NCBI GenBank assembly: GCA_028282585.1
Contig: JANQHR010000126.1
Location: forward strand, 32,001 to 96,000
Length of the DNA stretch: 64,000 nucleotides
Direction: 5' to 3'
Source: Bacteroidales bacterium
Lineage (GTDB): Bacteria; Bacteroidota; Bacteroidia; Bacteroidales; UBA12077
A program made the position numbers and the translations under genes. Below are positions 10,692-28,445 of the stretch, piece by piece. Positions within the stretch are counted from its first letter, which is position 1. The number at the start of each line of letters is the position of its first letter. Under the pieces are notes generated by a model. It was not told the DNA's origin, ran no database searches, and worked only from the letters and a program-made list of their open reading frames with translations.

Positions 10692-13600
10692 ATGAAAAAT
10701 TTCCGTTTATACAATATTGTTGTTGGCTGGATTTCATTCTTAATAGCTGCAATTGTTTATATGCTAACCATTGAACCAACTGCCAGTTTTTGGGATTGTG
10801 GAGAGTTTATAGCATCTGCATATAAATTAGAGATTGGTCACCCTCCTGGCGCACCGTTTTTTATGATATTAGGTAGGTTTTTTACAATTTTTACAGGATC
10901 TCCGGAAAATGCTGCAAAAATGGTTAATATATTATCAGGGTTGGCTAGTGCCTTTACAATATTGTTCTTATTTTGGACAATCACTCATTTTGTTCGTAAA
11001 ATTGTTATTAAAGCTGATAAAGATTATAGCACCGGGAATATTATAACTATTTTAGGTAGTGGATTGGTTGGTGCATTAGCTTATACTTTTTCAGATACTT
11101 TTTGGTTTTCAGCTGTTGAAGCAGAAGTTTATGCAACATCTTCATTATTTACTGCAGTAGTTTTCTGGGCAATTTTAAAATGGGAAAATGAATCGGACAG
11201 AAAATATGCTAATCGCTGGATTATTTTAATTGCTTATCTGATTGGACTTTCAATTGGTGTTCACCTGTTAAATTTATTGGCGATTCCCGCAATAGTTTTT
11301 GTTTATTATTTTAAAAAATACCCGGTAACTAAAAAAGGAGTATTTTATGCATTATTAATTTCCGGAATTTTATTAGGATCAATCATGTATATATTGATAC
11401 CAGGCATTGTAAAAGTAGCATCTTGGTTCGATTTGTTATTTGTAAATGGATTTGGATTACCATTTAATTCGGGAACAATATTTTACGTAGCTGTTTTAAT
11501 TTCATTGATTATTTGGGGAATAAAATATACTCAGCGAAAAGGTAAAGTTGTATTTAATACCATAATTTTGGGAATGACAGTAGTTTTAATAGGATACTCG
11601 TCTTACGCAATGATTATTATTCGATCATCTGCTGATCCACCAATGGATCAAAATAATCCTGATAATGCTTTTGACTTACTTTATTATTTAAATCGGGAAC
11701 AATATGGAGATAGACCTTTATTTTATGGTCAGACTTTTGATGCTCCCATGGTTGATAATAAAAAAACAAAGCCTGTCTACATAAAAAAAGGAGGTAAATA
11801 TATTATAGCAGATCATAAAATTGAAGTTGAATATGATGATCGATTTACTACGTTATTTCCAAGAATGTATAGTCCGGATAATAATCATGTAAATGAATAT
11901 AAAAAGTGGTCAAATCTTGATGGAGATGAAATTACAGTTAATTCAAGAGGAGGTCAGGTAGAGAAAAGGATTAAACCTTCTTTTGGAGATAATATAGGAT
12001 TCTTTATTAGATATCAGGTTGGCCATATGTATTTTAGATATTTTATGTGGAATTTCGCCGGGCGACAAAATGATATTCAAGGGCATGGAAATGTTTTAAA
12101 AGGAAATTGGTTAAGTGGAATTCCATTTATTGATAATGCAAGATTAGGAGATCAGGATTTGGTTCCCGAGCATTTGAAAAATAACCCTGCAAGAAATGAA
12201 TATTTTATGCTCCCATTTATATTAGGATTAGTTGGATTATTTTTTCATTACAAAAAGCAAAAATATGATTTTACAATAGTGCTAATGTTGTTTATTCTAA
12301 CAGGTTTGGCAATTGTTGTTTATTTGAATCAGTATCCGTTACAACCACGCGAACGGGATTATGCCTATGCAGGATCGTTTTATGCATTTTCAATTTGGCT
12401 GGGTTTAGGAGTTGCAGGATTAATTGATTTATTAAGTAAAAAGGCTCCAAAGGTAATGTCTGCCTCTTTAGTTACTTTAATAACCTTAATATTGGTACCT
12501 GGAATAATGGCATCTGAGAATTGGGATGATCATGATAGATCAGGACGTTATACCGCAAGAGATATGGCATATAATTACCTTAACTCATGTAAGGAGAATG
12601 CTATCTTATTTACAAATGGCGATAATGATACGTTTCCGCTTTGGTATGCTCAAGAAGTGGAAGGCATAAGAACAGACATAAAGGTTTGTAATCTGAGTTA
12701 TTTACGCGCAGCTTGGTATATAGATCAAATGAGCAGAAAATCATATGAATCGGAAAAACTTCCATTTTCATTAACTTATGAACAATACCATAAAGGGAAT
12801 CGCGATATTTTGCCAATTTACGATAGAGTAGGACAGGCAGTTGATGTAAAAGATGTAATGGAATTTATTGCAAGTGATGATCCAAAAACTAAAATTAAAT
12901 CACCTTTTGTCGCAAATGAAACAATTAATTACATCCCAACTGATAAGTTTAAACTGCAGATAAATGCTGAAGATGTGTTGAAAAAGGGTATTGTAAGTGA
13001 AAAATACGCAGATAGAATTGAAGATAAAATGGAATGGAGTTTTGGTCAGCGATATTTATATAAAGACGGATTAATGCTACTTGATATGTTAGCAACAAAT
13101 AATTGGGAGAGACCAATTTATTGGGCAATGACTGTTTCAAGTTCAAAGTATTTTAACCTGCAAAAGTATTTTAAAGTTGATGGGCTAACTTATCAGCTAG
13201 TGCCAGTATTGGCTGAGAATGAAAGATTTTACAGCGGAGAAGTAGATTCGGATGTAATGTATGATAATATAATGAATAAATTTCGTTGGGGTGGAATAGA
13301 AGAAAATGATATTTATTTTGACGAAAATAACATTCGAATGTTTTCTAATTTAAGAAGTAGTTTTGGTCGTTTAGCAGAAAAATTAATTAAAGAAAATAAG
13401 AGAGATTCTGCACTAAGAGTTCTTGATCGATGTATGGAGCTGTTTCCTGATCATAAAATACCTTACAATAATACTTTGATTTCAGTAATTTCAGCGTATT
13501 ATCATGCAGAAGCATATGAAACCGCAGATGATTTGGTACAGAAGCTTTCGGATAAAGTAAGTGTAGAATTAGACTATTATTTTAGTTTAGATCCGAAATA

Positions 13601-13757
13601 CATGATAGGAACTAAAGACATGTCAAAAGAAAAACAATTAAATTTATATATTCTACAGGAGCTATATAAAATTACCGCTGATAATAATCAAATTGAAAAG
13701 GCAAAGGATATTGAATTAAGGTTTATGAATTATATGCAGTTATATAATAGTTATTAA
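10692..13757 (+). CDS. DUF2723-type / TMEM260-like GT-C membrane glycosyltransferase
   Basis: SFWDCGEF, HPPGAP, AVEAEVY, PRERDY, NGDNDTFPLWY motifs. Confidence 0.85.
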   Translation: MKNFRLYNIVVGWISFLIAAIVYMLTIEPTASFWDCGEFIASAYKLEIGHPPGAPFFMILGRFFTIFTGSPENAAKMVNILSGLASAFTILFLFWTITHFVRKIVIKADKDYSTGNIITILGSGLVGALAYTFSDTFWFSAVEAEVYATSSLFTAVVFWAILKWENESDRKYANRWIILIAYLIGLSIGVHLLNLLAIPAIVFVYYFKKYPVTKKGVFYALLISGILLGSIMYILIPGIVKVASWFDLLFVNGFGLPFNSGTIFYVAVLISLIIWGIKYTQRKGKVVFNTIILGMTVVLIGYSSYAMIIIRSSADPPMDQNNPDNAFDLLYYLNREQYGDRPLFYGQTFDAPMVDNKKTKPVYIKKGGKYIIADHKIEVEYDDRFTTLFPRMYSPDNNHVNEYKKWSNLDGDEITVNSRGGQVEKRIKPSFGDNIGFFIRYQVGHMYFRYFMWNFAGRQNDIQGHGNVLKGNWLSGIPFIDNARLGDQDLVPEHLKNNPARNEYFMLPFILGLVGLFFHYKKQKYDFTIVLMLFILTGLAIVVYLNQYPLQPRERDYAYAGSFYAFSIWLGLGVAGLIDLLSKKAPKVMSASLVTLITLILVPGIMASENWDDHDRSGRYTARDMAYNYLNSCKENAILFTNGDNDTFPLWYAQEVEGIRTDIKVCNLSYLRAAWYIDQMSRKSYESEKLPFSLTYEQYHKGNRDILPIYDRVGQAVDVKDVMEFIASDDPKTKIKSPFVANETINYIPTDKFKLQINAEDVLKKGIVSEKYADRIEDKMEWSFGQRYLYKDGLMLLDMLATNNWERPIYWAMTVSSSKYFNLQKYFKVDGLTYQLVPVLAENERFYSGEVDSDVMYDNIMNKFRWGGIEENDIYFDENNIRMFSNLRSSFGRLAEKLIKENKRDSALRVLDRCMELFPDHKIPYNNTLISVISAYYHAEAYETADDLVQKLSDKVSVELDYYFSLDPKYMIGTKDMSKEKQLNLYILQELYKITADNNQIEKAKDIELRFMNYMQLYNSY

Positions 13758-14378
13758 ATGTTAAAAAAAGAACATATTGCAGCAAAAATTCTTAGAGATT
13801 TAACCTGGCATTTTGCAGGAAAAGACAATGAACTTTTCTTAACTTTTGATGATGGCCCTTCTCCTGAGATTACTCCATGGGTGCTATCTATATTAGCGGA
13901 GTATGACGCAAAGGCAACTTTTTTTTGTATAGGAGGCAAAGTAGATAGAAATCCGAGTTTGTATGAACAAATATTGAAAGAAGGACATTCCGTAGGAAAC
14001 CATGGATATTTGCACATGAATGGATGGAGAACAGGAACCGATAAGTATGTTAGAAATGTTTACAGAGCAGCACATTTTATAAATTCGGATTTATTCAGGC
14101 CTCCTTATGGGAGGATTCGTCCAAAACAAATTACTCAATTAAAAAAAGAGTTTAGAATTGTAATGTGGGATGTACTATCAGGTGATTACGATAAAAAAGT
14201 TAATGAAGTAAGGTGTTTGTACAATGTTCTATCTTATGCCGAATCAGGATCAATCATTGTTTTTCATGACAATATGAAGTCTGAGAAAAACCTAAAGTAT
14301 GTTTTACCAAAAGTGCTTGAGCATTTTACGAAAAAAGATTTTATATTTAATTCAATAGAGTATAAAAAAATAGATTAA
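13758..14378 (+). CDS. Polysaccharide deacetylase (NodB fold)
   Basis: LTFDDGP, GNHGYLH, FRPPYG, IVFHD. Confidence 0.92.
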   Translation: MLKKEHIAAKILRDLTWHFAGKDNELFLTFDDGPSPEITPWVLSILAEYDAKATFFCIGGKVDRNPSLYEQILKEGHSVGNHGYLHMNGWRTGTDKYVRNVYRAAHFINSDLFRPPYGRIRPKQITQLKKEFRIVMWDVLSGDYDKKVNEVRCLYNVLSYAESGSIIVFHDNMKSEKNLKYVLPKVLEHFTKKDFIFNSIEYKKID

Positions 14379-15544
14379 GATCTTTTATTAAAAAGGAACT
14401 TATAAATTAACAAAAAAGGTCTTAAAAAATAATAAATAAAAAATAGAGAGTCTTTTATTTTTACTATTTCCCAATCAGACAGATGTGTTCTAAGTCGAAA
14501 CAATAAATCCAGATAATATTTAGAATCTTTTTTAAGTTTTAGTCTGTAAAAAACAAACTTCAGTTTTCCTAAGATATTTTTTTGACTAATATCTTTGGTG
14601 TTTATAGAGTTTAAAGGCATTCTTATTAAGGCAGGTTTTATATTAAATTCGATAAAATTTATCTCTTTAGTATGATATATCTTATTCGAAAGCATACAAG
14701 CCTGAATAAATGTTTTATCTAGTTTTAATTTCTTAGATAGGTCGAAAGCAGATTTTAATTCATTTTCATTGCTTTTTGTAATTGAAACAGAAAAATCTTT
14801 TAACCAAAATAATCTATACCATTGATGAATACTTCCATGCGCAGCCTGATAAACTAAGTTTTCAGTTTTAGAGATATAAGGTAATTTGTAATTTGAAACC
14901 TTCAGGTTTTGTTTGTTAGAGATGATATTATTTGTTTCTAATCCTAAAAATGATTTAGGGTTAGTCATATTCCAATGCAGTTCAATTTCAATTCCTTGAA
15001 TTGAATGGACAAAATGATAATGATGACTTATGCCATAATTGATTTTTTTTTGTTTTTCTGTTAATTTTATAGAAGGATAGACACAGATAAAATTAAAGTC
15101 TTCAATGATTTTTTTTGCTCTTTCAGTATCGCTGTTTTTTACTAAAACATCAATATCCCTGAAATTTCTAAAACCGATATCATTGTATAAATCGATTGAA
15201 AGCAATGGACCTTTAAAGAAACAGTGCTCTATATTTTGTTTATTAAATTCCTCATGAATCCTTATCGCATGTATCGCAAAATTTAAAGCACGTTTTGAGT
15301 GTTCTAACCGGATTTCTATTAATTTTTCGTAAACAGGGATAGGTATTTTTTCTGCTAAAAAAGTAGAATGTTTTAATATATGTGATATGACTCTGTGTTT
15401 AATGGCAAGCTCAAAAAAGTCATCCCAATCAATTTTGGAAAGATCTAATTGATAGTCACTCTCTAATTTATTTTGTGTAAGGTAAATTATAAGTTTGAGT
15501 TCTTCTGAAAATTTTGAACTCATATAGCTTTTTATTTTATTCAT
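14375..15544 (-). CDS. Nucleotidyltransferase family protein (NTP_transf_5-like), lasso tailoring enzyme
   Basis: FKGPLLS...RNFRDIDVLV, IELHW, RLFWLKD; start overlaps the cyclase stop. Confidence 0.85.
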   Translation of the reverse strand: MNKIKSYMSSKFSEELKLIIYLTQNKLESDYQLDLSKIDWDDFFELAIKHRVISHILKHSTFLAEKIPIPVYEKLIEIRLEHSKRALNFAIHAIRIHEEFNKQNIEHCFFKGPLLSIDLYNDIGFRNFRDIDVLVKNSDTERAKKIIEDFNFICVYPSIKLTEKQKKINYGISHHYHFVHSIQGIEIELHWNMTNPKSFLGLETNNIISNKQNLKVSNYKLPYISKTENLVYQAAHGSIHQWYRLFWLKDFSVSITKSNENELKSAFDLSKKLKLDKTFIQACMLSNKIYHTKEINFIEFNIKPALIRMPLNSINTKDISQKNILGKLKFVFYRLKLKKDSKYYLDLLFRLRTHLSDWEIVKIKDSLFFIYYFLRPFLLIYKFLFNKRS

Positions 15545-17409
15545 TTAAACATGGTTGGATTATTTTCAATAAACAGAATTAATTTTAAATAGTTATAAAA
15601 TGCTCCGGGGTTTATATCCCGATATTTTTTTTCTGATCTTTTACGTAATTTATTAAACCATTGTTCGTATTTATTTACATCAATATATTGGGTAATTAAT
15701 TTATTTGATTTTGCCCTTGTAATAATTTCAAGAATTTGTTCCGAATCATTCATCATTCGCATATGAACAGTAGGAATTGTTGCCCCACTTTTATCATTTC
15801 TCCATTGAATTTTTTCAGGAACTATTCCTTCAAGTGATCTTCGAATCAGGTATCTGCCGATTCCGTTTCTAGCTTTCAACCTGGTTGGAACGGATAAATA
15901 ATATTCGATTAAACGGATATCAAGTAATGGATATCTATATTCGATACCATAGTTTCTTGCTATCAAAGAACAATATTCAAGACGCTGTGATACATGCTGA
16001 TGTGTAATTCTTTCAATATTTCTTTGTTGTAGTCCGGTTATATTTAATTTTTGATAATTAGAATAATATCTTTCCTTTATTTTATGTTTTTCTAAAAAAA
16101 ATGGATTGATTGCCAGGTTTTTAAATTTATAAGTCCACCAGGGTTTTTTAAATTTTAGTTTTAAAAGAATCGGGAAACGGGATTTTAAAAAAACTTTAAG
16201 ATACCTTTTTAGATAATTTAAATAATTGGGATATTGATTTTTGAGATCAACCTTAAGTTCTTTCCATTTTTTATTTGCAGCCAATTCATTTAAATATCCC
16301 GAAGATTTTGAGGTAACTACTTCATCGCCACCAAATCCAGAAAGTAAAACAGTTATATTTTCTTGCTTTGCTTTTTCGTATAACTGATCAGAAAATACAC
16401 CAAAATTTTGCTGAAACAAACTTCTGGTCTCACTTACATTTTGTTTTAATGTTTTGAGTAAAGATTTCTCTGATGTTATAAAATTTCGATTCTCTATTTT
16501 ACTATAATTCGCTAATAGATTTATAAAATCCCGTTCATCTTTAAAGGGATGAATTTTTCCAAATAAATGGTCTGGTAAAACATGAGAAAATGATTTAACT
16601 GGAAGAAAGTTTGAGGCTATAGCCATAACACAAGATGAGTCAATTCCACCGCTTAATTCTGCGCCAACCGATTCCACGTATTTGGTTCTGCAACTAACAG
16701 ATTCAAATAGCAAGTGTTTAAAATCGTTAATTATATCAACATCTTTTTTTTGAACTTCCCTTTTAGTGTTTAGTACCCAATATGATTTTATATCGAGCTT
16801 ATTATTTTTTAATATAAGAATGTGTGCCGGAGGTAATTTCTTAACTTCGGCATAAGTTGTTCGGAATTTTTCCGATTTTACAATAGAAATTGTATCGGCG
16901 ACTTGTTGATTGTCAATTGAAAAAACAAGATCGGTTTGTTCTAAAATGCTAGCGACATCGGTTGAAAAAACAAATGAGTCTTTATTAAAATAATAATGAA
17001 AGGGTTTTATTCCCAAATGATCACGAGCACAGAAAAGCTCTTCGTTTTTTGAATCCCAGATCGCGAAAGCAAAATCACCGATTAGGTAATTTACGCATTT
17101 ATTTCCCCATTTTATATATGCTTCTAAAATGATAAAATCATCACTGAGGCCTTTATTAATTTCTAAATCTCTGATGATTTCATTTCTATTGTAAATAACA
17201 GAATCAGAAACCAGGATAAAACCTGCATAATTTAAAATGGGTTGGTTTTCAAAAGGTGGGAAAAGTACTAGCCCAAAACCAGAGTGATTTTCTAGTGTAA
17301 ATTGAGATTTATTTTTTAAATAAACGGTAAGTTTTTTGATACTTTTCTTAAAAAGCTCTTGGTTTATAGGTTCTGTGTTAACGTTTACTCTTCCAAATAT
17401 AGACCGCAT
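15541..17409 (-). CDS. Lasso peptide cyclase (asparagine synthetase-like C protein)
   Basis: GDFAFAIWD, ARDHLGIKP, LSGGIDSS, LSGFGGDE, YPLLD; lacks the N-terminal glutaminase Cys; lasso gene context. Confidence 0.88.
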   Translation of the reverse strand: MRSIFGRVNVNTEPINQELFKKSIKKLTVYLKNKSQFTLENHSGFGLVLFPPFENQPILNYAGFILVSDSVIYNRNEIIRDLEINKGLSDDFIILEAYIKWGNKCVNYLIGDFAFAIWDSKNEELFCARDHLGIKPFHYYFNKDSFVFSTDVASILEQTDLVFSIDNQQVADTISIVKSEKFRTTYAEVKKLPPAHILILKNNKLDIKSYWVLNTKREVQKKDVDIINDFKHLLFESVSCRTKYVESVGAELSGGIDSSCVMAIASNFLPVKSFSHVLPDHLFGKIHPFKDERDFINLLANYSKIENRNFITSEKSLLKTLKQNVSETRSLFQQNFGVFSDQLYEKAKQENITVLLSGFGGDEVVTSKSSGYLNELAANKKWKELKVDLKNQYPNYLNYLKRYLKVFLKSRFPILLKLKFKKPWWTYKFKNLAINPFFLEKHKIKERYYSNYQKLNITGLQQRNIERITHQHVSQRLEYCSLIARNYGIEYRYPLLDIRLIEYYLSVPTRLKARNGIGRYLIRRSLEGIVPEKIQWRNDKSGATIPTVHMRMMNDSEQILEIITRAKSNKLITQYIDVNKYEQWFNKLRKRSEKKYRDINPGAFYNYLKLILFIENNPTMFK

Positions 17410-17423
17410 ATATTCGTTTTAAG

Positions 17424-17496
17424 CAAAGATAAGCAATTTACGCAAGTGTCTTTAAACAACTGAAAACAGGATTTTATCTGTTTTTCAATAAATTTG
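17424..17496. promoter_or_regulatory. Back-to-back promoters of the lasso cluster
   Basis: Minus-strand TATCTTTG at 17424-17431 and plus-strand TAAATTTG at 17489-17496, each 14-17 nt before the respective ATG. Confidence 0.55.
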
Positions 17497-17513
17497 TGTT
17501 AGTTTGCACTAAA

Positions 17514-18410
17514 ATGAAAAAGAAATTTACATATAAAGCATTTGGCTTAATTTTTAACTCGGATTTTGAAATTCCGGAACTCTTAACCGGATCAGGCGAT
17601 ACTGGCATAAAAATCGAGTTGGGGAAGACTCCAAATCAACTTCAAAAAATTACTAATAAAGGAGTAAAATATGAAGCAACTAAAAATGAATTTTTGCTTC
17701 AGGTTGATCACATAGCAAGATATTATGTTCAAGACGGCGAGAAAATAACCATAGAATTATTAAAAGATAAAGTTGATAAAGAAGTTAGGTTGTTTTTGTT
17801 AGGTTCTGCATTTGGTTCTCTTTTTCTTCAAAGGGGATTGCTGCCGATCCATGGGAGTAGTATTAAGTTCAAAAACTTTGCAACTATATTTACAGGCTTA
17901 AGCGGTGTTGGAAAATCAACTATAGCGGCACATTTTGTTAAACTATCTTATCAGGCTTTGGCAGATGACATTAGTGTTATAAATCACCAATTGCAAGTTG
18001 CGCCTGGTTTTCCAAGTTTGAAAATATGGAATGATGTTTTGGAAAAATTGGAAATTGACAGTGAAAAATTAAATCAAATAAGGCCAAATTTTAAAAAGTT
18101 TCGTGTACCGGTTAATGAGCAATATTATTCCGAACCAGTTCCATTGAAAAATATCGTGATTCTTAGCACAAAAAACTCTCCGGGATTTGAAATCGAGGAG
18201 TTAAACGGAATTAAAAAGTTTACTGCAATCAAGAATAATACCTATCGATATCGATTTGTTCAGGGGCTTGAAAAACAACTGGATCATTTTCAGATTCTTG
18301 ATAAGCTCTTGCCGAAAATAAAGGTTTATAAAGTTTCAAAACCACAGGCCCCATTATTGTTAGATGAATTAGGTGATTTTTTATTACAGAAAATTGAATT
18401 AAATGTCTAA
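17514..18410 (+). CDS. HPr-kinase-like lasso peptide kinase (PadeK-like)
   Basis: YKAFGL..SDFEIPEL N-terminus, LPIHGS, GLSGVGKST P-loop, LADD. Confidence 0.85.
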   Translation: MKKKFTYKAFGLIFNSDFEIPELLTGSGDTGIKIELGKTPNQLQKITNKGVKYEATKNEFLLQVDHIARYYVQDGEKITIELLKDKVDKEVRLFLLGSAFGSLFLQRGLLPIHGSSIKFKNFATIFTGLSGVGKSTIAAHFVKLSYQALADDISVINHQLQVAPGFPSLKIWNDVLEKLEIDSEKLNQIRPNFKKFRVPVNEQYYSEPVPLKNIVILSTKNSPGFEIEELNGIKKFTAIKNNTYRYRFVQGLEKQLDHFQILDKLLPKIKVYKVSKPQAPLLLDELGDFLLQKIELNV

Positions 18411-19269
18411 GAAAAATATCATATGGTTGGCTAGTTATCCGAAATCGGGAAATACTTGGTTTCGTATTTTTCTTACTAATTTGTTATACGAATCAGATGA
18501 TCCTGCGAATATCAATGATTTAGCTGAAACCTCCATTTCCAGTTCGCGAAAGATATTTGATGAATACACAGGCCTTTCATCTTCCGATTTAACTTTTGAG
18601 GAAATTGATACATTACGTCCTTATGTTTATCGTATACAATCAGAGGAAAGCAATGAGCTATTGTTTAAAAAAGCTCATGATAAGTTTTATAATGTGAATA
18701 AAAATCAACCCTTGTTTCCACCGGAAGTTTCAAAAGGAGTCATTTATTTTATTCGTAATCCATTGGACGTATTAGTTTCTTTTGCATATCACAGTGCTAA
18801 ACCTATTTCAAGAATGCTACCTTCACTAAATAATTCAAAATATGAATTTTGTGGAAGAGATAACAAATTACAAAATCAGTTAAGGCAAATACTAGGAAGC
18901 TGGTCTGGTCACGTTTGTAGTTGGATCAACCAGGATTTAATTCCGATTCATATCATGAGGTATGAAGATATGATCAATGATACTTTTAATACGTTTAAAC
19001 ATGCCGTACAATTTATTGGATTGAAAAAAACGGATAAACAAATAAAAACGGCCTTGGCAAAAAGTAGTTTTTCAGTTTTATCGAAACAGGAAAAAAAGGA
19101 TGGTTTTAGGGAAAAAATGATTCGCACAAAATTTTTTTTTCGTAAAGGTCAAATAGGTGATTGGAAAAACCATTTAAGTGAACGGGAGGTAGAAAAAATT
19201 GTTTTAAACAATAAAGAAATTATGTTGAAATTCAAATACTTGGACAGTAATTACAAACCTATATTTTAA
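18403..19269 (+). CDS. PAPS-dependent sulfotransferase
   Basis: ASYPKSGNTW (5'-PSB), RNPLDVLVS (3'-PB), FFRKGQIGDWKN. Confidence 0.92.
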   Translation: MSKKNIIWLASYPKSGNTWFRIFLTNLLYESDDPANINDLAETSISSSRKIFDEYTGLSSSDLTFEEIDTLRPYVYRIQSEESNELLFKKAHDKFYNVNKNQPLFPPEVSKGVIYFIRNPLDVLVSFAYHSAKPISRMLPSLNNSKYEFCGRDNKLQNQLRQILGSWSGHVCSWINQDLIPIHIMRYEDMINDTFNTFKHAVQFIGLKKTDKQIKTALAKSSFSVLSKQEKKDGFREKMIRTKFFFRKGQIGDWKNHLSEREVEKIVLNNKEIMLKFKYLDSNYKPIF

Positions 19270-19270
19270 A

Positions 19271-19561
19271 ATGGTTAAAATAAAATTAACGGAAAATACT
19301 TTAATAAAGAGAAAGAATAGTATTCTAGCCAGTGATTTGGATGGGGAAAAGGTTATGATGAGTATCCAAAAAGGTGAGTATTATGGTTTAGGGAAAACGG
19401 GAACTTTTATTTGGGATCACATTGAAAATTACATCTCAATTAGTGATTTAATAACTTTAATTACAGATAAGTATAATGTAAAGAAAGAGCAATGTTTAAA
19501 AGATATTATTCCTTTTATAACGGACCTTATTGAAAAAGAGCTTATTATTGCAACCAATTAG
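19271..19561 (+). CDS. Lasso B1 / PqqD-like RiPP recognition element
   Basis: DLDGEKVMMSIQKGEYYGLGKTGTFIW; 96 aa. Confidence 0.9.
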   Translation: MVKIKLTENTLIKRKNSILASDLDGEKVMMSIQKGEYYGLGKTGTFIWDHIENYISISDLITLITDKYNVKKEQCLKDIIPFITDLIEKELIIATN

Positions 19562-19592
19562 AGTTTTTTTACGTTTAAACTTGTGAACACGA

Positions 19593-20033
19593 ATGATGTT
19601 CAAACAGATAAAGAAATATTGCAGCTTAGATAAAACTGAACGTAAAATCTTGAATCGAACTTTTTTTTGGTTAATTTATGCTTTTGTACTGGTTCGATTA
19701 ATACCTTTAAAATGGTTTAATTCAATTTTAGGGGAATATAACAACGTGGTTGAAGTAACTTTAAACACAAAACAACTACAGTTAATTTTTGTGGTTAAAA
19801 AAAATATAAGAAGAGTAAAAAAACATTTACCCTGGAAAGTTAAGTGTTTTGAAGAAGCAATAACAGCAAAAAAATTACTGGAAATGGTTAATATAAAATC
19901 AACACTTTACTTAGGAGTCAGAAAAGGGAGTAAACAGACCTTAAAAGCTCACGCCTGGTTGAAAAGTGGAGATAAATTTGTTAGTGGAGAAAAAGGATAT
20001 AAAAGTTTTGTGACGGTTGGATTTTATACTTGA
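19593..20033 (+). CDS. Lasso B2 leader peptidase (transglutaminase-like)
   Basis: WKVKCFEEA (catalytic Cys), LYLGV, AHAWL (His). Confidence 0.9.
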   Translation: MMFKQIKKYCSLDKTERKILNRTFFWLIYAFVLVRLIPLKWFNSILGEYNNVVEVTLNTKQLQLIFVVKKNIRRVKKHLPWKVKCFEEAITAKKLLEMVNIKSTLYLGVRKGSKQTLKAHAWLKSGDKFVSGEKGYKSFVTVGFYT

Positions 20034-20059
20034 TTATATGACACTTATGGAAGATTATA

Positions 20060-20088
20060 AAATTTGCATTAAATTTGATTTAAATTTG
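20060..20088 (+). repeat. Three AAATTTG direct repeats at 11-bp period upstream of the precursor
   Basis: Copies at 20060, 20071, 20082; two form TAAATTTG -7 boxes. Confidence 0.55.
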
Positions 20089-20099
20089 AAAAAAGTGAG

Positions 20100-20258
20100 A
20101 TGATGAAAGAAAAGAATGTAAATAAGGAAACTAGTCAACCATGCAATAAACTTGAATGGGAAGCTCCAAGATTATATTGTTTAGATAAAGGAAAAACAGA
20201 AGGGGGAACCTTTAGCGGATATGCTGAAGGTGTAACATATAATGGTACAGCATCGTAA
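20100..20258 (+). CDS. Lasso peptide precursor, 52 aa (not in the ORF track)
   Basis: Hand translation: MMKEKNVNKETSQPCNKLEWEAPRLYCLDKGKTE|GGTFSGYAEGVTYNGTAS*; WxxPxL, Thr(-2), Gly1, Glu9, C-terminal Ser. Confidence 0.92.
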   Translation: MMKEKNVNKETSQPCNKLEWEAPRLYCLDKGKTEGGTFSGYAEGVTYNGTAS

Positions 20259-20270
20259 ATTTGTTTTATA

Positions 20271-23200
20271 ATGAGAAAAGTTTTATATTTCTTAGGCATC
20301 ATTCTTATTCCATTAAATTGTTTTAGTCAGGCATGGATTGTGTCTCAGCATCTAAAAAGTGATAATGATTTAAGAATCTTAGATATTAAAAAAGATGCTG
20401 GTAATAATGTTTATGTTACTGGTATTTTTAAAGGCACATATAATGGTAATACTTCTGAAGGTCTTTTTGATATATTTCTGGCAAAGTTTAATAGTGATTT
20501 AAATAAAGAGTGGATTCAAACGGTAGGAAGTTCATCTGTTGAATTCGACCCTAGGATTACTTTAGATGCAGCAAATAATATTTTTTTAACGGGCGCTTTT
20601 AGAGACAGCTGTGTTTTTGATGAAAATATATATTTAAAAAGTGACGGTAACTACGATATTTTTCTCGCAAAGTATTCGAATGTAGGAAATATTATATGGG
20701 CAAAAAATATTGCTAATTATCCAACGCAGCAAAATCCGACTGATATAGATGTTGATGGTAACAACGATCTAATAATAACAGGTCACTTTTCAGACTCTAC
20801 GTATCTTATAAATCAAAAAATAGTTAGTTCAGGAAGGAATAGTTTTTTTGCAAAAATTGATACCAGTGGAACTAAAATTTGGGTTAATTATGTGCCAGGA
20901 AATAATATATCTTCAAGAATTAATAATATTAAAGTGTACCAAGATGAATATTATTTTAATGGGTACTTTAGAGATGAGATGTACTTTGATATTGAAACAA
21001 TTACTAGCAATATACCAGGTCAACAGGATCTTTTTATTTATAAAACAGACATAAATGGCAATGGATTATGGATAAGAAGAACTTATGGTGATAATTTAGA
21101 TGCTACTGGTTCTATTGCTGGAGATAATTATGGTAATGTTTACTTTACAGGGTACTTTCAAAGCTCAACATTAGCGGTAGATTCAACTGATATTAGTTTA
21201 TCTAGTCAGATTTTAACCAATAATAATGATTTTGATATTTTCATATTAAAGTACAATAAAAATGGTAACCTACAGTGGAATAAACAATTTGGACTAAATG
21301 GTCGTGATTACGGTGTTGATGTGAATGTCAATAATGATATTTTATACATGTCAGGTTATTTTAGCGATACTATAGCTTTTGGTGAATATTCACTTGAATC
21401 GACAGGAACAGGGGATAGAGATATGTTTATAACTGTTATGGATCTAAATGCGAAGACTTTTAATTCCATATCTCTGGGAGGGATTGATGGCAATGACCTT
21501 GCTGCTGGCGCTTTGGTTTTAGAAGACGGAGATGCAATCATTAGTGGTTATTTTCAATCATCCAGTATTTCTGTTGGAGATAGCTTATTCATGAATGCTT
21601 CACCTGGTTTTAGGGATGGAATAGTTGCAGAATATAGGCCACCATTATCTGCAGTTTTTTCAAACGTTGAAAATATTGCCTGTAATTCAGATAATGATGG
21701 AGAGCTTACAATAACTGCTGAGTTTGGACAAAAGCCTTATACGTATTCCTGGAGTCATGATGGAGGTTTAACCGATTCTACTGCAATAGGGCTTTCTGCT
21801 GCAACTTATACAGTTACAGTTACAGATGCTGTTGACTCAACGGCGGTGGTAAGTTACGATTTAACTGAACCGGATGAAATTACGTTTAATCCATTGGTTA
21901 CCCAGGTAAGTCAATGCAGTTACTCAAAAGAAGGAGTTATTGATTTAAATGCAGCAGGAGGAAATGGAGGATATACATATCAATGGCAGGCGAGCGAAGG
22001 AGGAGATGGTATTGTGTTAAGCGCAGAAGACCAATCAGGTTTAGCTATTGGTAGATACGATGTAACAATAACTGACACAGAATTATGTACAAATGATACT
22101 ATAACTTACATTACCGGACCGGCACCAATTACGTTTGGAGGTTCTGTTGTAACTGATTCTTCGGGGATAGGTCCCGGAGCTATTGATTTATCATATACTG
22201 GTGGATCTGGAAGTCCTGCTTCTTTTACATTTGATTGGATTGGCCCATCAGGTCCTCCAGCTACTCATTCTGAAGATACTTCCAACTTGAGTCCTGGAAA
22301 TTATAGTGTTACTGTTACAGATGTTCATCTTTGTGAGTTTGATACAACCTTTAATGTTGCAAATTTGGATACATTTTATATATTTATTTCAGACCAAAAA
22401 GATGCTTGTTTAGGAACTATTAATGGTAATGCAACGGTTAGCTTTTCTTCACCTAAAGGACATACGTTAATTAACTATTTATGGGATGTAAATGCAGGAA
22501 GCCAAACAACGGCAAAAGCAACTAATTTAGCTCCCGGGAGATATTATAAAGTTACTGTTACTGATACTGAGAATACGCCGAATACAACTTTAGTTGATAG
22601 TGTATATATAGATGAGTTAATATATAATTTGGCAGGTTCATTGTCAGGTACAACAACACTGGATTGTTACGGTGATACGGATGGTTATATTGATTTAACC
22701 ATAACCATAGCTGGAGAGTTGCCCTATACTTATAATTGGAGTACAGGTTCAAACTTACAGGATATTACCGATCTTGGAATAGGAAATTATAGTGTTACAG
22801 TTACTGATGATAATGAGTGTACTTTTTCAATTACAAACTATGCTATAAACCAGCCGGAACTTTTAACAGCTTCTGCTGAAATTATAAACGAACCTTCTTG
22901 TAACGGGGATTTTGATGGTGAAGTAACTGTTGATAGAAACGGAGGGACAGCACCTTACACGTACCAATGGGATGACCCCGGATTTCAAGATACCCGCAAT
23001 GCAGATGGATTAGATGCTGGCTATTACACTGTAACTGTTACGGATGTAAATAATTGTATGACATTATCTGGAATTAATTTAACCGAACCAGATGTAGTTT
23101 CAATTAGTAAAGTAATAAGTGATGAGATATGTAATTCAGCAGGAGAAGGAGCAGTTACATTAACAACAACGGGAGGTACGGATCCTTTTGGCTATTCTTG

Positions 23201-24584
23201 GACTACAACTGATGGTTCAGGATTAATATCTTCTAATAAAAATCAGACCGGGCTTACAGCAGGGAAATATTATTTTACAGCAACCGATAATAATGGTTGT
23301 GCTTTTATGGATAGTGCTGAGATAACGGAACCTGAATTACTTCAAATTACCAATGAATCCAAAACAGATGTGAATACCTGTAATGGTGATAACACTGGTA
23401 CCATAACAATCGCAGCATCAGGAGGTACAGGTATTTTAACTTATACATTAAATCCTGGAAATATTCAAACAAATAATACAGGGGCATTTACAAGTCTTGG
23501 TGCTGGTAATTATACAGTAAATGTTGAAGATGAAAATGCATGTGCAGTAGCTTCAAGTTCTCTGAGTATAGCAGAACCGGCTTTATTAATAATTACTAGG
23601 AATGATGTAAATGATGCAACTTGTTATGGAATTAATAATGGGAATATTGACATTAATGTGTCCGGAGGAACAATTTCATCAGGATATACTTTTAATTGGA
23701 CAACTTCGGATGGTTCTGGACTAGTTGCAGGTTCAGAAGATCAGCCAAGTTTAGGAAATGGGACCTATGATTTAACTGTAACTGATGATAATTTATGTTC
23801 GGATAATACAAGCTTTGTGTTAACAGAACCTGAAGCTATTATAGTTAATAAAACAGTGTATGAGCCATCATGCAATGATGATAATGATGGAACTGTAATA
23901 GTTACACATTCTGGAGGAACTTTACCTTTTTCGTATTTTTGGACAACAACAGATGGAAGTGGCTTAGATCCGGTTTATCGAAACCAAGGTGGATTAAGCC
24001 CGGGAACGTATTATTTAGAAATTACAGATGCTTTAGATTGTATAATTAACGAAGCTGTTACAATTACAGCGCCATCTATAATTACTATAGATTCTCAGAG
24101 CTCTACTGATGCAACCGATTTTAATACTGCTGACGGAACAATTTCAGTAACTGCATCCGGAGGTACAAGTACATTGACTTATGTATTAAGACCAGACGAT
24201 ATTTCGAACCAAACCGGTACTTTCAATTCATTATTACCTGGTGAATATGTAATAGAAGTTGATGATATTTATTTTTGTGGACCAATAACAACAGATACTA
24301 TTACTATTGGAGCAATTAATTCAGTTAATTTAATTTTTGCAGGAGATTTTATTAAAGTGTTTCCTAATCCAACATCAAGTAAAGTATTCGTGGAAATAGA
24401 TATGAATGCTACCTTTAAATTAGAACTCGCTAGTATGTCTGGACAAATCTTATATCAGGATGAAATAATCACAAATGGATTTATGAAAGAAGAGATTGAT
24501 CTTTCCTCATTTACAAAAGGGATTTATTTGCTGAGAATATATAATAATGAATATTACTTAACAGATAAGCTTATATTGCAGTGA
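20271..24584 (+). CDS. T9SS-secreted protein: N-terminal beta-propeller, SprB-like repeats, type A sorting domain
   Basis: Signal peptide; repeated D.xGNVYxTGxF/DIFLAK blades; GGTxPYTYxW...GL..G.Y.VTVTD repeats; VFPNP...GIYLLRI...KLIL C-terminal domain. Confidence 0.88.
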   Translation: MRKVLYFLGIILIPLNCFSQAWIVSQHLKSDNDLRILDIKKDAGNNVYVTGIFKGTYNGNTSEGLFDIFLAKFNSDLNKEWIQTVGSSSVEFDPRITLDAANNIFLTGAFRDSCVFDENIYLKSDGNYDIFLAKYSNVGNIIWAKNIANYPTQQNPTDIDVDGNNDLIITGHFSDSTYLINQKIVSSGRNSFFAKIDTSGTKIWVNYVPGNNISSRINNIKVYQDEYYFNGYFRDEMYFDIETITSNIPGQQDLFIYKTDINGNGLWIRRTYGDNLDATGSIAGDNYGNVYFTGYFQSSTLAVDSTDISLSSQILTNNNDFDIFILKYNKNGNLQWNKQFGLNGRDYGVDVNVNNDILYMSGYFSDTIAFGEYSLESTGTGDRDMFITVMDLNAKTFNSISLGGIDGNDLAAGALVLEDGDAIISGYFQSSSISVGDSLFMNASPGFRDGIVAEYRPPLSAVFSNVENIACNSDNDGELTITAEFGQKPYTYSWSHDGGLTDSTAIGLSAATYTVTVTDAVDSTAVVSYDLTEPDEITFNPLVTQVSQCSYSKEGVIDLNAAGGNGGYTYQWQASEGGDGIVLSAEDQSGLAIGRYDVTITDTELCTNDTITYITGPAPITFGGSVVTDSSGIGPGAIDLSYTGGSGSPASFTFDWIGPSGPPATHSEDTSNLSPGNYSVTVTDVHLCEFDTTFNVANLDTFYIFISDQKDACLGTINGNATVSFSSPKGHTLINYLWDVNAGSQTTAKATNLAPGRYYKVTVTDTENTPNTTLVDSVYIDELIYNLAGSLSGTTTLDCYGDTDGYIDLTITIAGELPYTYNWSTGSNLQDITDLGIGNYSVTVTDDNECTFSITNYAINQPELLTASAEIINEPSCNGDFDGEVTVDRNGGTAPYTYQWDDPGFQDTRNADGLDAGYYTVTVTDVNNCMTLSGINLTEPDVVSISKVISDEICNSAGEGAVTLTTTGGTDPFGYSWTTTDGSGLISSNKNQTGLTAGKYYFTATDNNGCAFMDSAEITEPELLQITNESKTDVNTCNGDNTGTITIAASGGTGILTYTLNPGNIQTNNTGAFTSLGAGNYTVNVEDENACAVASSSLSIAEPALLIITRNDVNDATCYGINNGNIDINVSGGTISSGYTFNWTTSDGSGLVAGSEDQPSLGNGTYDLTVTDDNLCSDNTSFVLTEPEAIIVNKTVYEPSCNDDNDGTVIVTHSGGTLPFSYFWTTTDGSGLDPVYRNQGGLSPGTYYLEITDALDCIINEAVTITAPSIITIDSQSSTDATDFNTADGTISVTASGGTSTLTYVLRPDDISNQTGTFNSLLPGEYVIEVDDIYFCGPITTDTITIGAINSVNLIFAGDFIKVFPNPTSSKVFVEIDMNATFKLELASMSGQILYQDEIITNGFMKEEIDLSSFTKGIYLLRIYNNEYYLTDKLILQ

Positions 24585-26997: not shown

Positions 26998-27450
26998 TTA
27001 AAATCTTTCAACAAAGGAAAGTAATGCAATTGCTAAACCTTGTTCTCCTTCCTTAAAGTTAACCCAAATATGGTAAACTCCTGTTTGTGTACATTTAAAA
27101 TCAACGCTAGGATAGCTTTTACCTGTAGCTACAATATATGTTGTTCCTAATAAACGGTTATTATCATAAATTTGCAGAATTGCTTCTCCAGCAAAATCCT
27201 TGGAATTACAAATCGAGAAACGGTATTTAGTATTTTTACTAAGCACAACCGAATGTCTGGCAACAGGGGGCTCTTCACCTGGTTTTGCTGCTTCAAGTTT
27301 AATTTGGAAATCTTTGAGATACGTAGCATCTTCACCTGCTACCATATTACATATATCTACTAACTCTTGACCAGATTGAGCTAATAACTTATTACTATTT
27401 CCTAATATTAAAATTGCAAATAGGGTAAAAATTATATATACGTTTCTCAT
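26998..27450 (-). CDS. Hypothetical secreted protein
   Basis: Signal peptide ending LLAQ; beta-rich, 3 Cys. Confidence 0.7.
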   Translation of the reverse strand: MRNVYIIFTLFAILILGNSNKLLAQSGQELVDICNMVAGEDATYLKDFQIKLEAAKPGEEPPVARHSVVLSKNTKYRFSICNSKDFAGEAILQIYDNNRLLGTTYIVATGKSYPSVDFKCTQTGVYHIWVNFKEGEQGLAIALLSFVERF

Positions 27451-27452
27451 AT

Positions 27453-28364
27453 TTACAACTGTATTACATTATTACGAACTTCAACAGTTTTTTCTATAAT
27501 CTTAAATAATGTTTCATTCGAGATTTCAATATACTGTTTGTCGTTTTGTTTAATAACCAACATCCCATCTTCTTCAACTGCCTCTGGTTCTCCCTTTTCG
27601 TAAGTTATTGTAACTTCTTTGTAAAGTTCTTGTATTTCTGCTAACTGATCAATTAGTTCTTTAAATTTTGGATCTCGTTCATAGTTTTTAAGTAATAACA
27701 TCAAATTACTTAAAATGATTTTTTGTTCTCCGATCTTTTCCGAAAGTTCAGCATTTGGTGATTCCTTAATAACTTCGCTTAACAAATACATACTTTCAAT
27801 CCAAACTCCGGCTACAATTAGTGAACTTAAATTACTTCGGTTATTTTCTCTTAAATAACGATCCATTTGATTAAAATTTTGCACAGAAATGTACATCAAC
27901 GAATCAAGATTTTGATTATTTGTAGCTAATCTTTTGAGTGTTGTGAAGTCAAAGAACTGTCCAACTCGTATTTCATCTGCAAGAGTTTTAATAGCGGATA
28001 TATAGTCAATTACTCCTCCAGTTTTATTATACATATTTTGATAACCTAAATCAGCGCCAAATATACCTAAACTAAGAGCTTGTTTAAAGCTTGTATTATA
28101 GCTGTCAACATAATCGGTAGTTGCGAGATAATCTTTAGAATAAGGTACTCCGACTGCTTTAATTAATGCGGCAATTTCAACCGGAGATGAAATATTTTGT
28201 ACAATTTCATCAATCGCCTGTTCTGAAATTTCTAAATCACCTTCATATATCACAGAATCAGGAACTTCAAATTCTTTTGAGAAGTCTGTATCCTTTGATT
28301 TATCAGAACGACAAGCTGCAAAAATTAATAAAGGTAATAATATGTATATCAATCTTTTGCTCAT
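27453..28364 (-). CDS. Hypothetical helical lipoprotein
   Basis: Start at 28364 gives MSKRLIYILLPLLIFAAC lipobox. Confidence 0.75.
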   Translation of the reverse strand: MSKRLIYILLPLLIFAACRSDKSKDTDFSKEFEVPDSVIYEGDLEISEQAIDEIVQNISSPVEIAALIKAVGVPYSKDYLATTDYVDSYNTSFKQALSLGIFGADLGYQNMYNKTGGVIDYISAIKTLADEIRVGQFFDFTTLKRLATNNQNLDSLMYISVQNFNQMDRYLRENNRSNLSSLIVAGVWIESMYLLSEVIKESPNAELSEKIGEQKIILSNLMLLLKNYERDPKFKELIDQLAEIQELYKEVTITYEKGEPEAVEEDGMLVIKQNDKQYIEISNETLFKIIEKTVEVRNNVIQL

Positions 28365-28445
28365 AGTCAATTGTGTTGATTTCCAATTATATTGCAAATT
28401 TAACATATCACATAAAGATATAAAAATATTCAATATCACGAAATA

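Follow-up and report, generated by a model that had tools for sequence, protein, structure and literature searches.

The great stability of lasso peptides makes them valued scaffolds, and several act as antibiotics or enzyme inhibitors. The characterised examples in the literature searched come from Firmicutes, Proteobacteria and Actinobacteria only, none of them from Bacteroidales, and the available portions of the sources describe ring sizes of 7-9 residues. For paeninodin, the accessible part of the published description names an N-terminal Ala, an inner Asp to which the ring is closed, and a C-terminal Ser that is phosphorylated. [quoted passage not shown] The characterised lasso kinase BsfK acts on core Ser3, and not on the C-terminal Ser, in a system where B1 helps the kinase as well as B2 (PMC10368454). 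Some lasso clusters also include a sulfotransferase, whose function is stated to be unknown in the available portions of two reports (PMC8498205, PMC4289311).

Paeninodin and pseudomycoidin are the closest characterised relatives of the peptide encoded by a short open reading frame (ORF) in a 64-kb stretch of DNA from a Bacteroidales bacterium, hereafter the window. The ORF (20100-20258) is one member of a large uncharacterised Bacteroidales lasso family. The literature search returned no description of a Bacteroidales lasso peptide or of a sulfated lasso peptide, and the lasso cluster of Amoebophilus is of another, proteobacteria-like kind.

The lasso gene set and the precursor family

The genes ahead of the precursor encode a nucleotidyltransferase, a cyclase, an HprK-like kinase, a sulfotransferase, B1 and B2, and the catalytic residues of the cluster enzymes are invariant across 17-28 homologues each. 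The lasso cyclase, an asparagine-synthetase-like macrolactam synthetase on the minus strand (15541-17409), matches PF00733 at 1.4e-43 and NF033535 at 4.5e-115, the latter below the model's cut-off; its S253-G-G-x-D257 motif is invariant among homologues. B1 (19271-19561, plus strand) is a PqqD-like RiPP recognition element (RRE) that matches PF05402 at 1.4e-15 and NF033536 with 96.3 bits against a cut-off of 80, and its matches in the PDB include the lasso PqqD chaperone 9x90_B (1.2e-17) and TbiB1 (7e-8). The transglutaminase-like leader peptidase B2 (19593-20033, plus strand) is recognised by PF13471 at 8e-17 and NF033537 at 4.8e-20; a comparison with the PDB returned nothing meaningful, and all 28 homologues retain Cys85 and His120.

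With its stop codon, the B2 ORF reaches to 20033, and a spacer of 66 nt (20034-20099) separates it from the precursor ORF (20100-20258, plus strand), which encodes 52 amino acids counted from 20100, with its stop at 20256-20258 and the translation MMKEKNVNKETSQPCNKLEWEAPRLYCLDKGKTEGGTFSGYAEGVTYNGTAS. The first-pass annotation had described an ORF of this length at this position, and the window translation bears it out. Two neighbouring ATGs, at 20100 and 20103, stand at its beginning, and it is the second that is conserved when the DNA of 20 homologous loci is aligned, so translation probably starts at 20103 and yields a product of 51 amino acids. No Pfam or NCBIfam model matched the peptide, and comparison of the precursor with the PDB gave chance-level matches to retinol-binding proteins only, with E values of 0.67 and above. 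The predicted core had no match in the texts or sequence libraries searched, in keeping with the earlier statement that it was not recognised as a known peptide, and a leader string likewise had no match in the papers searched.

The leader peptide comprises 34 amino acids (20100-20201, plus strand). As had been noted at first reading, it contains the motif WEAPRL (residues 20-25, 20157-20174) and a Thr at what would be the penultimate position, Thr33 (codon 20196-20198, plus strand), which is followed by Glu34 and then by Gly35-Gly36. The pattern W-x2-P-x-[LIVM]-x7-T-x is common to all 120 listed homologues, and in an alignment of 22 family members (A4) the W, P, L and T are invariant, the Thr lying two residues ahead of a Gly-Gly pair at a predicted cut position. 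Translated in all six frames (127,996 residues), the window has a single instance of this pattern, in the precursor ORF. Relative to the proposed cut, the W, P and L of WEAPRL are at -15, -12 and -10. The YxxPxL motif has been described at -17 to -12 (PMC10368454), and this difference in distance to the cut was counted against the reading of the ORF as a lasso precursor.

From this conservation and from known RRE biology, B1 would be expected to bind the leader through W-E-A-P-R-L. A predicted complex of B1 with the precursor scored 0.52, compared with 0.02 for the best control; the pLDDT of the partner was at least 53, and the runs agreed in at least 93% of contacts. Of 80 solved complexes, 58 attain the mark set for this score, as do 2 of 110 mismatched pairs, and scores of 0.60 or less are found in only 7 of the 80 solved complexes and in both passing mismatches. 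The prediction lends weak support to binding of the precursor by B1, and the pass may reflect likeness only, because similar RRE-leader complexes have been solved.

A profile search placed at least 155 protein clusters in the family at E <= 0.01, of which 120 were listed and compared; where named, the listed members are 'hypothetical protein' entries from uncultured Bacteroidales or Bacteroidota only. The 120 members have 117 distinct cores, which are hypervariable compared with the conserved leader. Related loci were searched for with an alignment of 6 closer homologues as query. In the 26 loci tabulated, some of them on contigs that are cut off, the precursor lies in a cluster with lasso enzymes, in most cases with B2 directly before it. 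The family is common: its kinase turned up in 54 of the 401 genomes sampled from the order (42 of 236 genera). Among 40 further kinase loci, plausible precursors were identified by the motif in 9 and by a looser pattern in 3 more, with none in the rest. Some of the kinase loci that lack a precursor match are on truncated contigs, and other precursors may be too divergent.

Core sequence and tailoring enzymes

The predicted core, GGTFSGYAEGVTYNGTAS, has 18 residues (20202-20255, plus strand), with Gly1 at 20202-20204, Glu9 at 20226-20228, Tyr13 at 20238-20240, and Ser18 at 20253-20255. As first described, the core in this proposed register starts with Gly1, has Glu9 as its sole acidic residue, and ends in Ser18; Tyr is found at positions 7 and 13. 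The earlier assignment to class II also holds, because the core has no Cys.

The HprK-like lasso-tailoring kinase (17496-18410, plus strand) has a weak match to PF07475 (4.7e-5). Its 26 homologues all retain His119, Lys140, Asp157 and Asp158, Lys140 being part of a P-loop (G134-x2-G137-x-G139-K140), and the window enzyme thus has the His-Lys-Asp-Asp set of paeninodin-type systems. A C-terminal Ser is found in 116 of the 117 distinct listed cores and in 22 of the 26 tabulated genomic loci. The conserved kinase residues and this near-invariant Ser support the initial proposal of Ser18 as the kinase target; by analogy with PadeK, ThcoK and PsmK, the enzyme would phosphorylate Ser18 on the linear precursor, an outcome that we consider probable. 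The Ser3 target of BsfK was counted against phosphorylation at the C-terminal Ser18. A PsmN-like nucleotidyltransferase of the NTP_transf_5 type (14375-15544, minus strand; PF14907 at 9.7e-46), in which Asp130 and Asp132 are invariant among 17 homologues, may then extend the Ser18 phosphate, by analogy with the hexose of pseudomycoidin.

The gene for the PAPS-type sulfotransferase (18403-19269, plus strand; PF00685 at 6e-28) overlaps the kinase gene by 8 nt. Among solved structures, this enzyme is nearest to cytosolic SULTs (1.6e-17) and to the sulfotransferases of glycopeptides Teg12, Teg14 and StaL. An APS kinase gene elsewhere in the genome indicates that PAPS can be made, and the PAPS-dependent enzyme would place a sulfate on a hydroxyl group, for which Tyr13 is the best single candidate. 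Tyr7 and Tyr13 had both been put forward as candidate sulfation sites, and Tyr13, with Asn14, also as a candidate plug. The proposal for Tyr7 finds little support in comparison, as this residue occurs in 1 of the 26 tabulated loci, the window's own. For Tyr13 the conservation stands (a Tyr four residues past the ring acid, acid+4, is present in 76 of the 117 distinct listed cores), and the residue may be a plug or a sulfation site.

Sulfation at a Tyr cannot be obligatory in the family, because 11 of the 117 distinct listed cores contain no Tyr at all and 4 of the 26 loci (L043, L046, L047 and L051) combine a Tyr-free core with a retained sulfotransferase. These cases favour a reading, to which we assign slightly less than even probability, in which Tyr13 is conserved as a steric plug and the sulfotransferase acts on a non-Tyr hydroxyl, such as a tail Ser or Thr or the sugar on phospho-Ser, or on a substrate other than the peptide. 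The kinase and sulfotransferase genes are moreover adjacent in nearly every locus, and overlapping in the window, an arrangement that fits both enzymes working on the same C-terminal site, and the nearest solved relatives of the sulfotransferase sulfate alcohols and steroids as well as phenols. This reading must be set against the standing of the acid+4 Tyr as the commonest landmark of the listed cores after Gly2 and the terminal Ser, and against the acidic residues that adjoin this Tyr in many of them; acidic neighbours favour Tyr sulfation. Teg12, Teg14 and StaL, which are among the matches, likewise sulfate phenolic groups of peptide antibiotics. Among relatives without the sulfotransferase, a plausible precursor was found in one locus only, L098, and it contains no Tyr, a single case being too few for a comparison of cores. 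We judge sulfation of the peptide at any position to be an even call, and sulfation specifically on Tyr13 to be doubtful.

Threading, cleavage register and the reality of the precursor

The tail past Tyr13 reads N-G-T-A-S and has no bulky side chain, so the C-terminal modifications may serve as a lower lock, a function that has been proposed for those of pseudomycoidin. According to the available portion of that report, wild-type pseudomycoidin was found to be unthreaded after purification, behaving as a branched cycle, and its authors proposed phosphate plus hexose as the lock; threading of the window product can therefore not be assumed. A mature product that is branched-cyclic and unthreaded, or one whose lasso fold depends entirely on the C-terminal modifications, would agree with the pseudomycoidin result and with the small residues of the tail. 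Tyr13 itself may be the lower plug, with a short loop, and we regard an unthreaded or modification-held product as a minority prospect beside a threaded one.

With regard to ring formation, B2 would cut after Thr33-Glu34, and the cyclase would join the amine of Gly1 to the side chain of Glu9, closing a ring of 9 residues through which the tail is threaded. The Gly1-Glu9 ring had been proposed at the outset and is supported by the family, an acidic residue being present at core position 9 in 91 of 117 distinct listed cores, and by the characterised relatives, whose rings join residue 1 to Asp9; we take it to be reasonably likely. In a smaller number of listed cores the acid is displaced: 8 of the 117 have one at position 8 and none at 9, and in 17 of the 117 the only acid within ring range is at position 10, as in the cores of L056 and L063. 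With the Thr at -2, the latter would need a 10-residue ring, and cuts before Gly1 and before Gly2 were both considered for this reason.

If B2 cut one residue later, after Thr-Glu-Gly, the core would be GTFSGYAEGVTYNGTAS, with an 8-residue Gly-Glu ring and a computed monoisotopic macrolactam mass of 1662.72 Da, versus 1719.74 Da in the Gly1 register. The rings of the family would then have 8 residues (91 cores), 9 (17) or 7 (8), all inside the described range of 7-9, with the 10-residue rings avoided, and the second Gly is indeed the invariant one, occupying position 2 in all 117 distinct listed cores, whereas position 1 varies (G in 105, N in 6, S in 5, T in 1). The later cut nevertheless appears rather unlikely. 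It would remove the Thr, invariant in the family, from the penultimate leader position, at which Thr is a recognition element in nearly all studied precursors (PMC10368454); the matched ranges of the paeninodin model, if the match is ungapped, put the first Gly at the core start of that family; and pseudomycoidin, in the accessible part of its description, has the same x1-G2...acid9 pattern, with A1-G2 and a ring to D9. The cut before Gly1 is the register taken here as the more likely.

That the ORF arose by chance or has decayed and goes untranslated, as its shortness and its being known here from DNA alone might suggest, is very improbable, because it trails a lasso gene set in which every enzyme gene is intact, and because its leader motif and open frame are kept in 120 of 120 listed homologues, its place after B2 is conserved across loci, its start codon and upstream box are conserved, and its leader motif is unique within the window. 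The first-pass identification of a lasso precursor is thus sustained by its position directly after B1 and B2 in a complete gene set and by the pairing of a conserved leader with a hypervariable core: the ORF is almost certainly a real lasso precursor, and it is likely to encode a true precursor from which a tailored class II lasso peptide akin to paeninodin is made.

Genomic neighbourhood and comparison with known systems

The spacer between B2 and the precursor contains a promoter-like element (20058-20089, plus strand) made up of AAAATTTGCAT followed by two TAAATTTG boxes (20070-20077 and 20081-20088), which can be read as the Bacteroidetes -7 box. An exact TAnnTTTG is present in this spacer in 16 of 26 loci, and in the DNA alignment of 20 loci conservation extends over the block TA..TTTGCAt.A.tTTTGA. 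A sigma-70 scan of 19500-20700 gave 3 promoter-like sites against 6.0 expected, with a model that does not cover Bacteroidetes promoters, and a terminator scan of the same interval found no terminator-like site. The precursor may thus be transcribed from its own element in the spacer, probably together with the gene downstream. That gene (20271-24584, plus strand) starts 12 nt past the precursor stop and encodes a protein of 1437 amino acids with SprB repeats (PF13573, 9 stretches) and a type IX secretion (T9SS) sorting tail (PF18962). Its adjacency to the precursor is kept in all 19 loci of one set and in further loci, and survives rearrangement in L041, L086 and L091, which suggests that the SprB-repeat protein is part of the lasso system.

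No ABC transporter was found among the scanned ORFs between 10692 and 26982, and the ABC gene nearest to the lasso cluster encodes an ABC-2/TerB protein (28446-31541). Together with orf150 and orf328, this 1031-aa transporter (Pfam ABC_tran, ABC2_membrane and TerB) forms a block on the minus strand (26998-31541) that, on grounds of synteny, is a candidate exporter module; in L086, a rearranged locus, it directly adjoins the lasso cluster, and in L082 and L067 it is near by. In more distant relatives that lack the SprB-type neighbour, an ABC gene is found beside the nucleotidyltransferase.

Many genera keep these neighbours beside the family's genes, a hint that the family has a physiological role. 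One joint reading would make it an old, largely vertically inherited Bacteroidales system whose product is a triply tailored lasso peptide (phosphate, a group added by the nucleotidyltransferase, and sulfate) produced with no classical exporter; its gene would share a transcript with that of a giant SprB-repeat surface protein secreted by the type IX system, and the peptide would act in concert with this protein or the neighbouring ABC-2/TerB module and not as a conventional antibiotic; the family would then give the first sulfated lasso peptide (sulfo-Tyr13) and, in about 15% of its members, the first 10-residue rings. Taken as a whole, this combination is improbable. The product probably carries extra chemical groups, and sulfate, a candidate among these, is not known to have been demonstrated on a lasso peptide. 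The window ORF offers a short and concrete substrate with predicted masses, accompanied by the 117 listed natural core variants, and the family makes it possible to test the role of the sulfotransferase, the leader cut, 10-residue rings, and the operation of Bacillus kinase and nucleotidyltransferase chemistry in another phylum. The monoisotopic masses computed for the Gly1-register macrolactam (1719.7376 Da; 1662.7162 Da in the Gly2 register) are 1799.7040 Da when it bears phosphate, 1799.6944 Da when it bears sulfate, a difference of 9.5 mDa, 1961.7568 Da for phosphate plus hexose, and 2041.7136 Da for all three groups.

Among described systems, BsfA/BsfK of Bradymonas sediminis resembles the window system in being a phosphorylated lasso from a Gram-negative host with a YxxPxL leader, and differs in the phosphorylation of Ser3, in an Ile at -2, in a Gly1-Asp8 ring, and in the placement of YxxPxL at -17 to -12 as against -15 to -10 in the window (PMC10368454). 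The Firmicutes lasso clusters with a sulfotransferase (Zhu et al. 2016 in PMC8498205; Letzel et al. 2014, PMC4289311) share, in the available portions of these sources, a sulfotransferase that adjoins kinase and lasso genes, whereas phylum, gene order and neighbours differ from those of the window; the literature searched describes no product for them.

The likeness to paeninodin of Paenibacillus dendritiformis (PadeA, PadeK) extends to the split B1/B2, the cyclase, the HprK-like kinase with His-Lys-Asp-Asp, the C-terminal Ser of the precursor, and a ring from residue 1 to an acid at position 9. The residues joined are Gly1 and Glu9 in the window and Ala1 and Asp9 in paeninodin, and the host is a member of the Bacteroidales in one case and of the Firmicutes in the other. 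The window cluster, in contrast to that of paeninodin, has no D-type ABC exporter inside it, includes both a sulfotransferase and a nucleotidyltransferase, and has its precursor directly upstream of the SprB-repeat T9SS gene. The window peptide does not match NF033524, the model of paeninodin family lasso peptides, even at E <= 10, and sub-threshold matches are confined to 4 of the 22 members of alignment A4 and to L044, the best reaching 22.9 bits against a cut-off of 27. For L034 and L043 the stretch matched is equally long in peptide and model, as an ungapped match would give, and puts the W at model position 4, the T at 17 and the GG at 19-20; this is what a common spacing of W/Y-x2-P-x-L-x7-T-x in the two families would produce. 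The window peptide is thus described as working like the paeninodin family and is not filed in NF033524, because it has no match to the model and its relatives stay under the cut-off.

Pseudomycoidin of Bacillus pseudomycoides (PsmK, PsmN) has a core sequence unrelated to that of the window, and in the available portion of its report PsmN lies beside an ABC exporter and no sulfotransferase is mentioned for the psm cluster. The two systems share a kinase together with an NTP_transf_5-type nucleotidyltransferase with a D-x-D pair, a ring pattern of A1-G2...D9 that parallels G1-G2...E9 in the window, and a tail of small residues ending in a C-terminal Ser, which in pseudomycoidin is phosphorylated and then receives a hexose.

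The precursor gene and its relatives

Translation of positions 20100-20258 on the forward strand gives MMKEKNVNKETSQPCNKLEWEAPRLYCLDKGKTEGGTFSGYAEGVTYNGTAS followed by a stop, and bears out the features that the first-pass annotation had read in this ORF: a WEAPRL leader motif, Thr-Glu preceding Gly-Gly, a C-terminal Ser, and a core (the last 18 residues) with its sole acidic residue at position 9 and Tyr at positions 7 and 13. Two adjacent ATGs lie at the start; the second (20103) is the one that lines up with the conserved ATG when 20 homologous loci are aligned as DNA. The preceding ORF, encoding the leader peptidase B2, ends at 20033, leaving a 66-nt spacer that carries a conserved block, TA..TTTGCAt.A.tTTTGA. 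The exact sequence TAnnTTTG, which we take to be a Bacteroidetes -7 promoter box, is found in the spacer of 16 of the 26 tabulated loci and twice in the window (20070-20077 and 20081-20088). A terminator scan found no terminator-like site 3′ of the precursor, and the next gene begins 12 nt past its stop.

A six-frame translation of the whole window, 127,996 residues in all, contains the strict motif W..P.[LIVM].{7}T. a single time, at the precursor ORF; permitting Y or F adds two matches, both unrelated. The leader motif lies at -15 to -10, as compared with the -17 to -12 described in PMC10368454. A profile of 22 precursors retrieved 155 proteins at E <= 0.01 from a collection of 5.8 billion, and the strict motif is present in all 120 relatives among the matches listed, whose source names, where shown, are all ‘hypothetical protein’. 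A leader that is conserved, attached to a core that is hypervariable apart from a few landmarks, is the pattern expected when a RiPP precursor is under selection.

Searching with the single sequence turned up three metagenomic homologues, two of them one residue off the window core, and a peptide search of 401 genomes of the same order gave clear matches in the genus's three other genomes and in several other families. The kinase is present in 54 of the 401 sampled genomes (42 of 236 genera), and the cluster type is therefore common in the order. A pattern scan of a species-level genome collection yielded 19 loci, three of which coincide with loci already in the set; 17 are from MAGs or SAGs labelled Bacteroidales, Bacteroidetes or Bacteroidota. 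The remaining two (L055 and L056) are short contigs from MAGs labelled Calditrichia and Thiohalospira that carry a Bacteroidales-type cluster despite these labels, which looks like binning error rather than transfer. One genome (G087) has extra lasso-like precursors adjoining cyclase genes at two loci, L037 and L042; kinase and sulfotransferase were not detected in these stretches, and the contig of L042 carries a kinase-sulfotransferase pair elsewhere.

The lasso gene set and its neighbourhood

Pfam and NCBIfam models identify an NTP_transf_5 nucleotidyltransferase (14375-15544, reverse strand; PF14907), an Asn-synthetase-like lasso cyclase (15541-17409, reverse; NF033535 at 4.5e-115, under the model cut-off), an HprK-like kinase (17496-18410, forward; a weak match to PF07475), a Sulfotransfer_1 enzyme (18403-19269, forward; PF00685), the PqqD-like protein B1 (19271-19561, forward; NF033536, 96 bits against a cut-off of 80) and B2 (19593-20033, forward; NF033537). 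Alignment of each enzyme to homologues from related loci revealed invariance at the expected catalytic residues: His119, P-loop Lys140 and Asp157/Asp158 in the kinase, the same set as the His-Lys-Asp-Asp of PadeK-type kinases in the available text of PMC9266682. Also invariant are Asp130/Asp132 of the nucleotidyltransferase, Cys85/His120 of B2 and S-G-G-x-D of the cyclase; pseudomycoidin requires D134/D136 of PsmN, according to the accessible portion of PMC6993621. An 8-nt overlap (18403-18410, forward) joins the kinase gene to the sulfotransferase gene, and the two are same-strand neighbours in nearly all related loci. Some loci with the kinase, a minority (L093, L094, L096 and L098 among them), have no sulfotransferase.

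Searching the ORFs of related loci with the window proteins gave a recurrent order of TMEM260-like protein, polysaccharide deacetylase, nucleotidyltransferase (reverse), cyclase (reverse), kinase, sulfotransferase, B1, B2, precursor, SprB-repeat protein and PurD, which is rearranged in more distant genomes. The SprB-repeat protein (about 1000-1700 aa with a type IX secretion tail; 20271-24584, forward) is encoded directly 3′ of the precursor, as it is in loci L031-L036, L039, L041, L043-L063, L079, L085, L088, L090 and L091. The two ORFs are 12 nt apart in the window and 2-72 nt apart in 16 loci whose ORF calls do not overlap, and the adjacency is kept in L041, L086 and L091 although the rest of the cluster is rearranged. 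In distant clusters without an SprB-type neighbour (L080, L095, L097, L098 and L099), an ABC transporter homologue adjoins the nucleotidyltransferase.

Three genes at 26998-31541 (reverse) form a module of two ORFs, of 150 and 328 aa, and an ABC-2 transporter of 1031 aa that contains a TerB domain. The module is syntenic with the lasso cluster in close relatives; it adjoins the nucleotidyltransferase in the rearranged L086 and lies close to the cluster in L082 and L067. It is a candidate for the exporter that the cluster otherwise lacks. The lasso genes are also flanked by a 1021-aa TMEM260-like (GT-C type O-mannosyltransferase-like) protein and a polysaccharide deacetylase (10692-14378, forward). 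This pair recurs in many genera of the order, at times adjoining the kinase, and represents either pathway members or merely a conserved neighbourhood.

Core landmarks and ring size

Between them, the 120 listed relatives have 117 different cores, each 14-20 residues long. All 117 carry G at position 2 and 116 end in Ser; position 1 is mostly G (105 cores), otherwise N (6), S (5) or T (1). An acidic residue stands at position 9 in 91 cores, at 8 without 9 in 8, solely at 10 in 17 and solely at 7 in 1; Tyr follows four residues after the ring-range acid in 76. Counted from the residue after Thr-x, the acid-only-at-10 relatives include L033, L056, L059 and L063, again with Tyr at +4.

With Thr at -2, these 17 of 117 relatives would need a 10-residue ring, and the available parts of PMC6993621 and PMC10368454 give lasso rings of 7-9 residues. 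This leaves two readings: rings of 10 residues in the acid-at-10 relatives, or cleavage throughout the family one residue past the Thr(-2) prediction. The later cut would bring all family rings within 7-9 and make the invariant Gly residue 1, giving the window peptide an 8-residue ring, but it would leave Thr at -3. The Thr rule and the paeninodin/pseudomycoidin pattern favour a 9-residue ring, which we consider the probable form of the window peptide, with the 8-residue ring the less likely alternative.

Proposed maturation and relation to known lasso peptides

The observed gene content and conservation patterns, read by analogy, suggest a pathway in which B1 would bind the leader, the kinase would phosphorylate Ser18 on the linear peptide, the nucleotidyltransferase would extend that phosphate, the sulfotransferase would sulfate some hydroxyl, B2 would cut after Thr-Glu and the cyclase would join Gly1 to Glu9. 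A predicted B1-precursor complex scored 0.52 (best control 0.02), with a partner pLDDT of at least 53 and contact agreement between runs of at least 93%. The mark that it weakly passed is attained by 58 of 80 solved complexes and 2 of 110 mismatched pairs, and scores of 0.60 or below comprise seven of the 80 solved complexes plus both passing mismatches. Since solved RRE-leader complexes exist, the modelled score indicates at most a likeness to them.

Ser18 had been put forward as the kinase target. The characterised kinase BsfK modifies Ser3 (PMC10368454), but position 3 varies in this family and the terminal Ser is nearly invariant, so that Ser18 is the favoured predicted site. The first-pass proposal of sulfation at Tyr7 or Tyr13 holds up less evenly: Tyr13 is conserved, whereas of the 26 tabulated loci the window alone has Tyr7, and 11 of the 117 distinct cores lack Tyr altogether. 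Four Tyr-free loci keep the sulfotransferase, which is nearest to cytosolic SULTs and also matches the glycopeptide sulfotransferases Teg12, Teg14 and StaL. PAPS supply is plausible, as the genome encodes an APS kinase at another site. The tail below Tyr13 has small residues only; the accessible portion of PMC6993621 describes wild-type pseudomycoidin as unthreaded once purified.

The literature searched held no match to the window core or a leader string, and no characterised sulfated or Bacteroidetes/Bacteroidota/Bacteroidales lasso product of this kind was found there; some family precursors may figure as predictions in RODEO/MIBiG. Features of the family are more unusual than the peptide itself, among them the SprB adjacency, the ABC-2/TerB module, the acid-at-10 cores and the kinase-sulfotransferase pairing.

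The window peptide has no family-model match. Sub-threshold matches to the paeninodin model NF033524 were obtained for 4 of the 22 aligned relatives and for the related locus L044; the best reached 22.9 bits, short of the cut-off of 27. In L034 and L043 the match spans as many positions of the protein as of the model, so that W falls on model position 4, the invariant T on 17 and Gly-Gly on 19-20, which fits an ungapped match. In the available parts of PMC8498205, PMC9266682 and PMC6993621, lasso kinases target the C-terminal Ser of the linear precursor and may add multiple phosphates, PsmN adds one or two hexoses after the kinase, and sulfotransferase genes are seen in such clusters with no function given, as likewise in PMC4289311 (2014). 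As far as the accessible text of PMC6993621 extends, the ring of paeninodin is formed by its N-terminal Ala and an inner Asp, and its C-terminal Ser is phosphorylated; in pseudomycoidin A1 is linked to D9, with G in position 2. The pattern x1-G2...acid9...Ser(C-terminus) is thus common to these peptides, as there described, and the window family, and the window peptide probably belongs with the paeninodin-like tailored lasso peptides, a known type.
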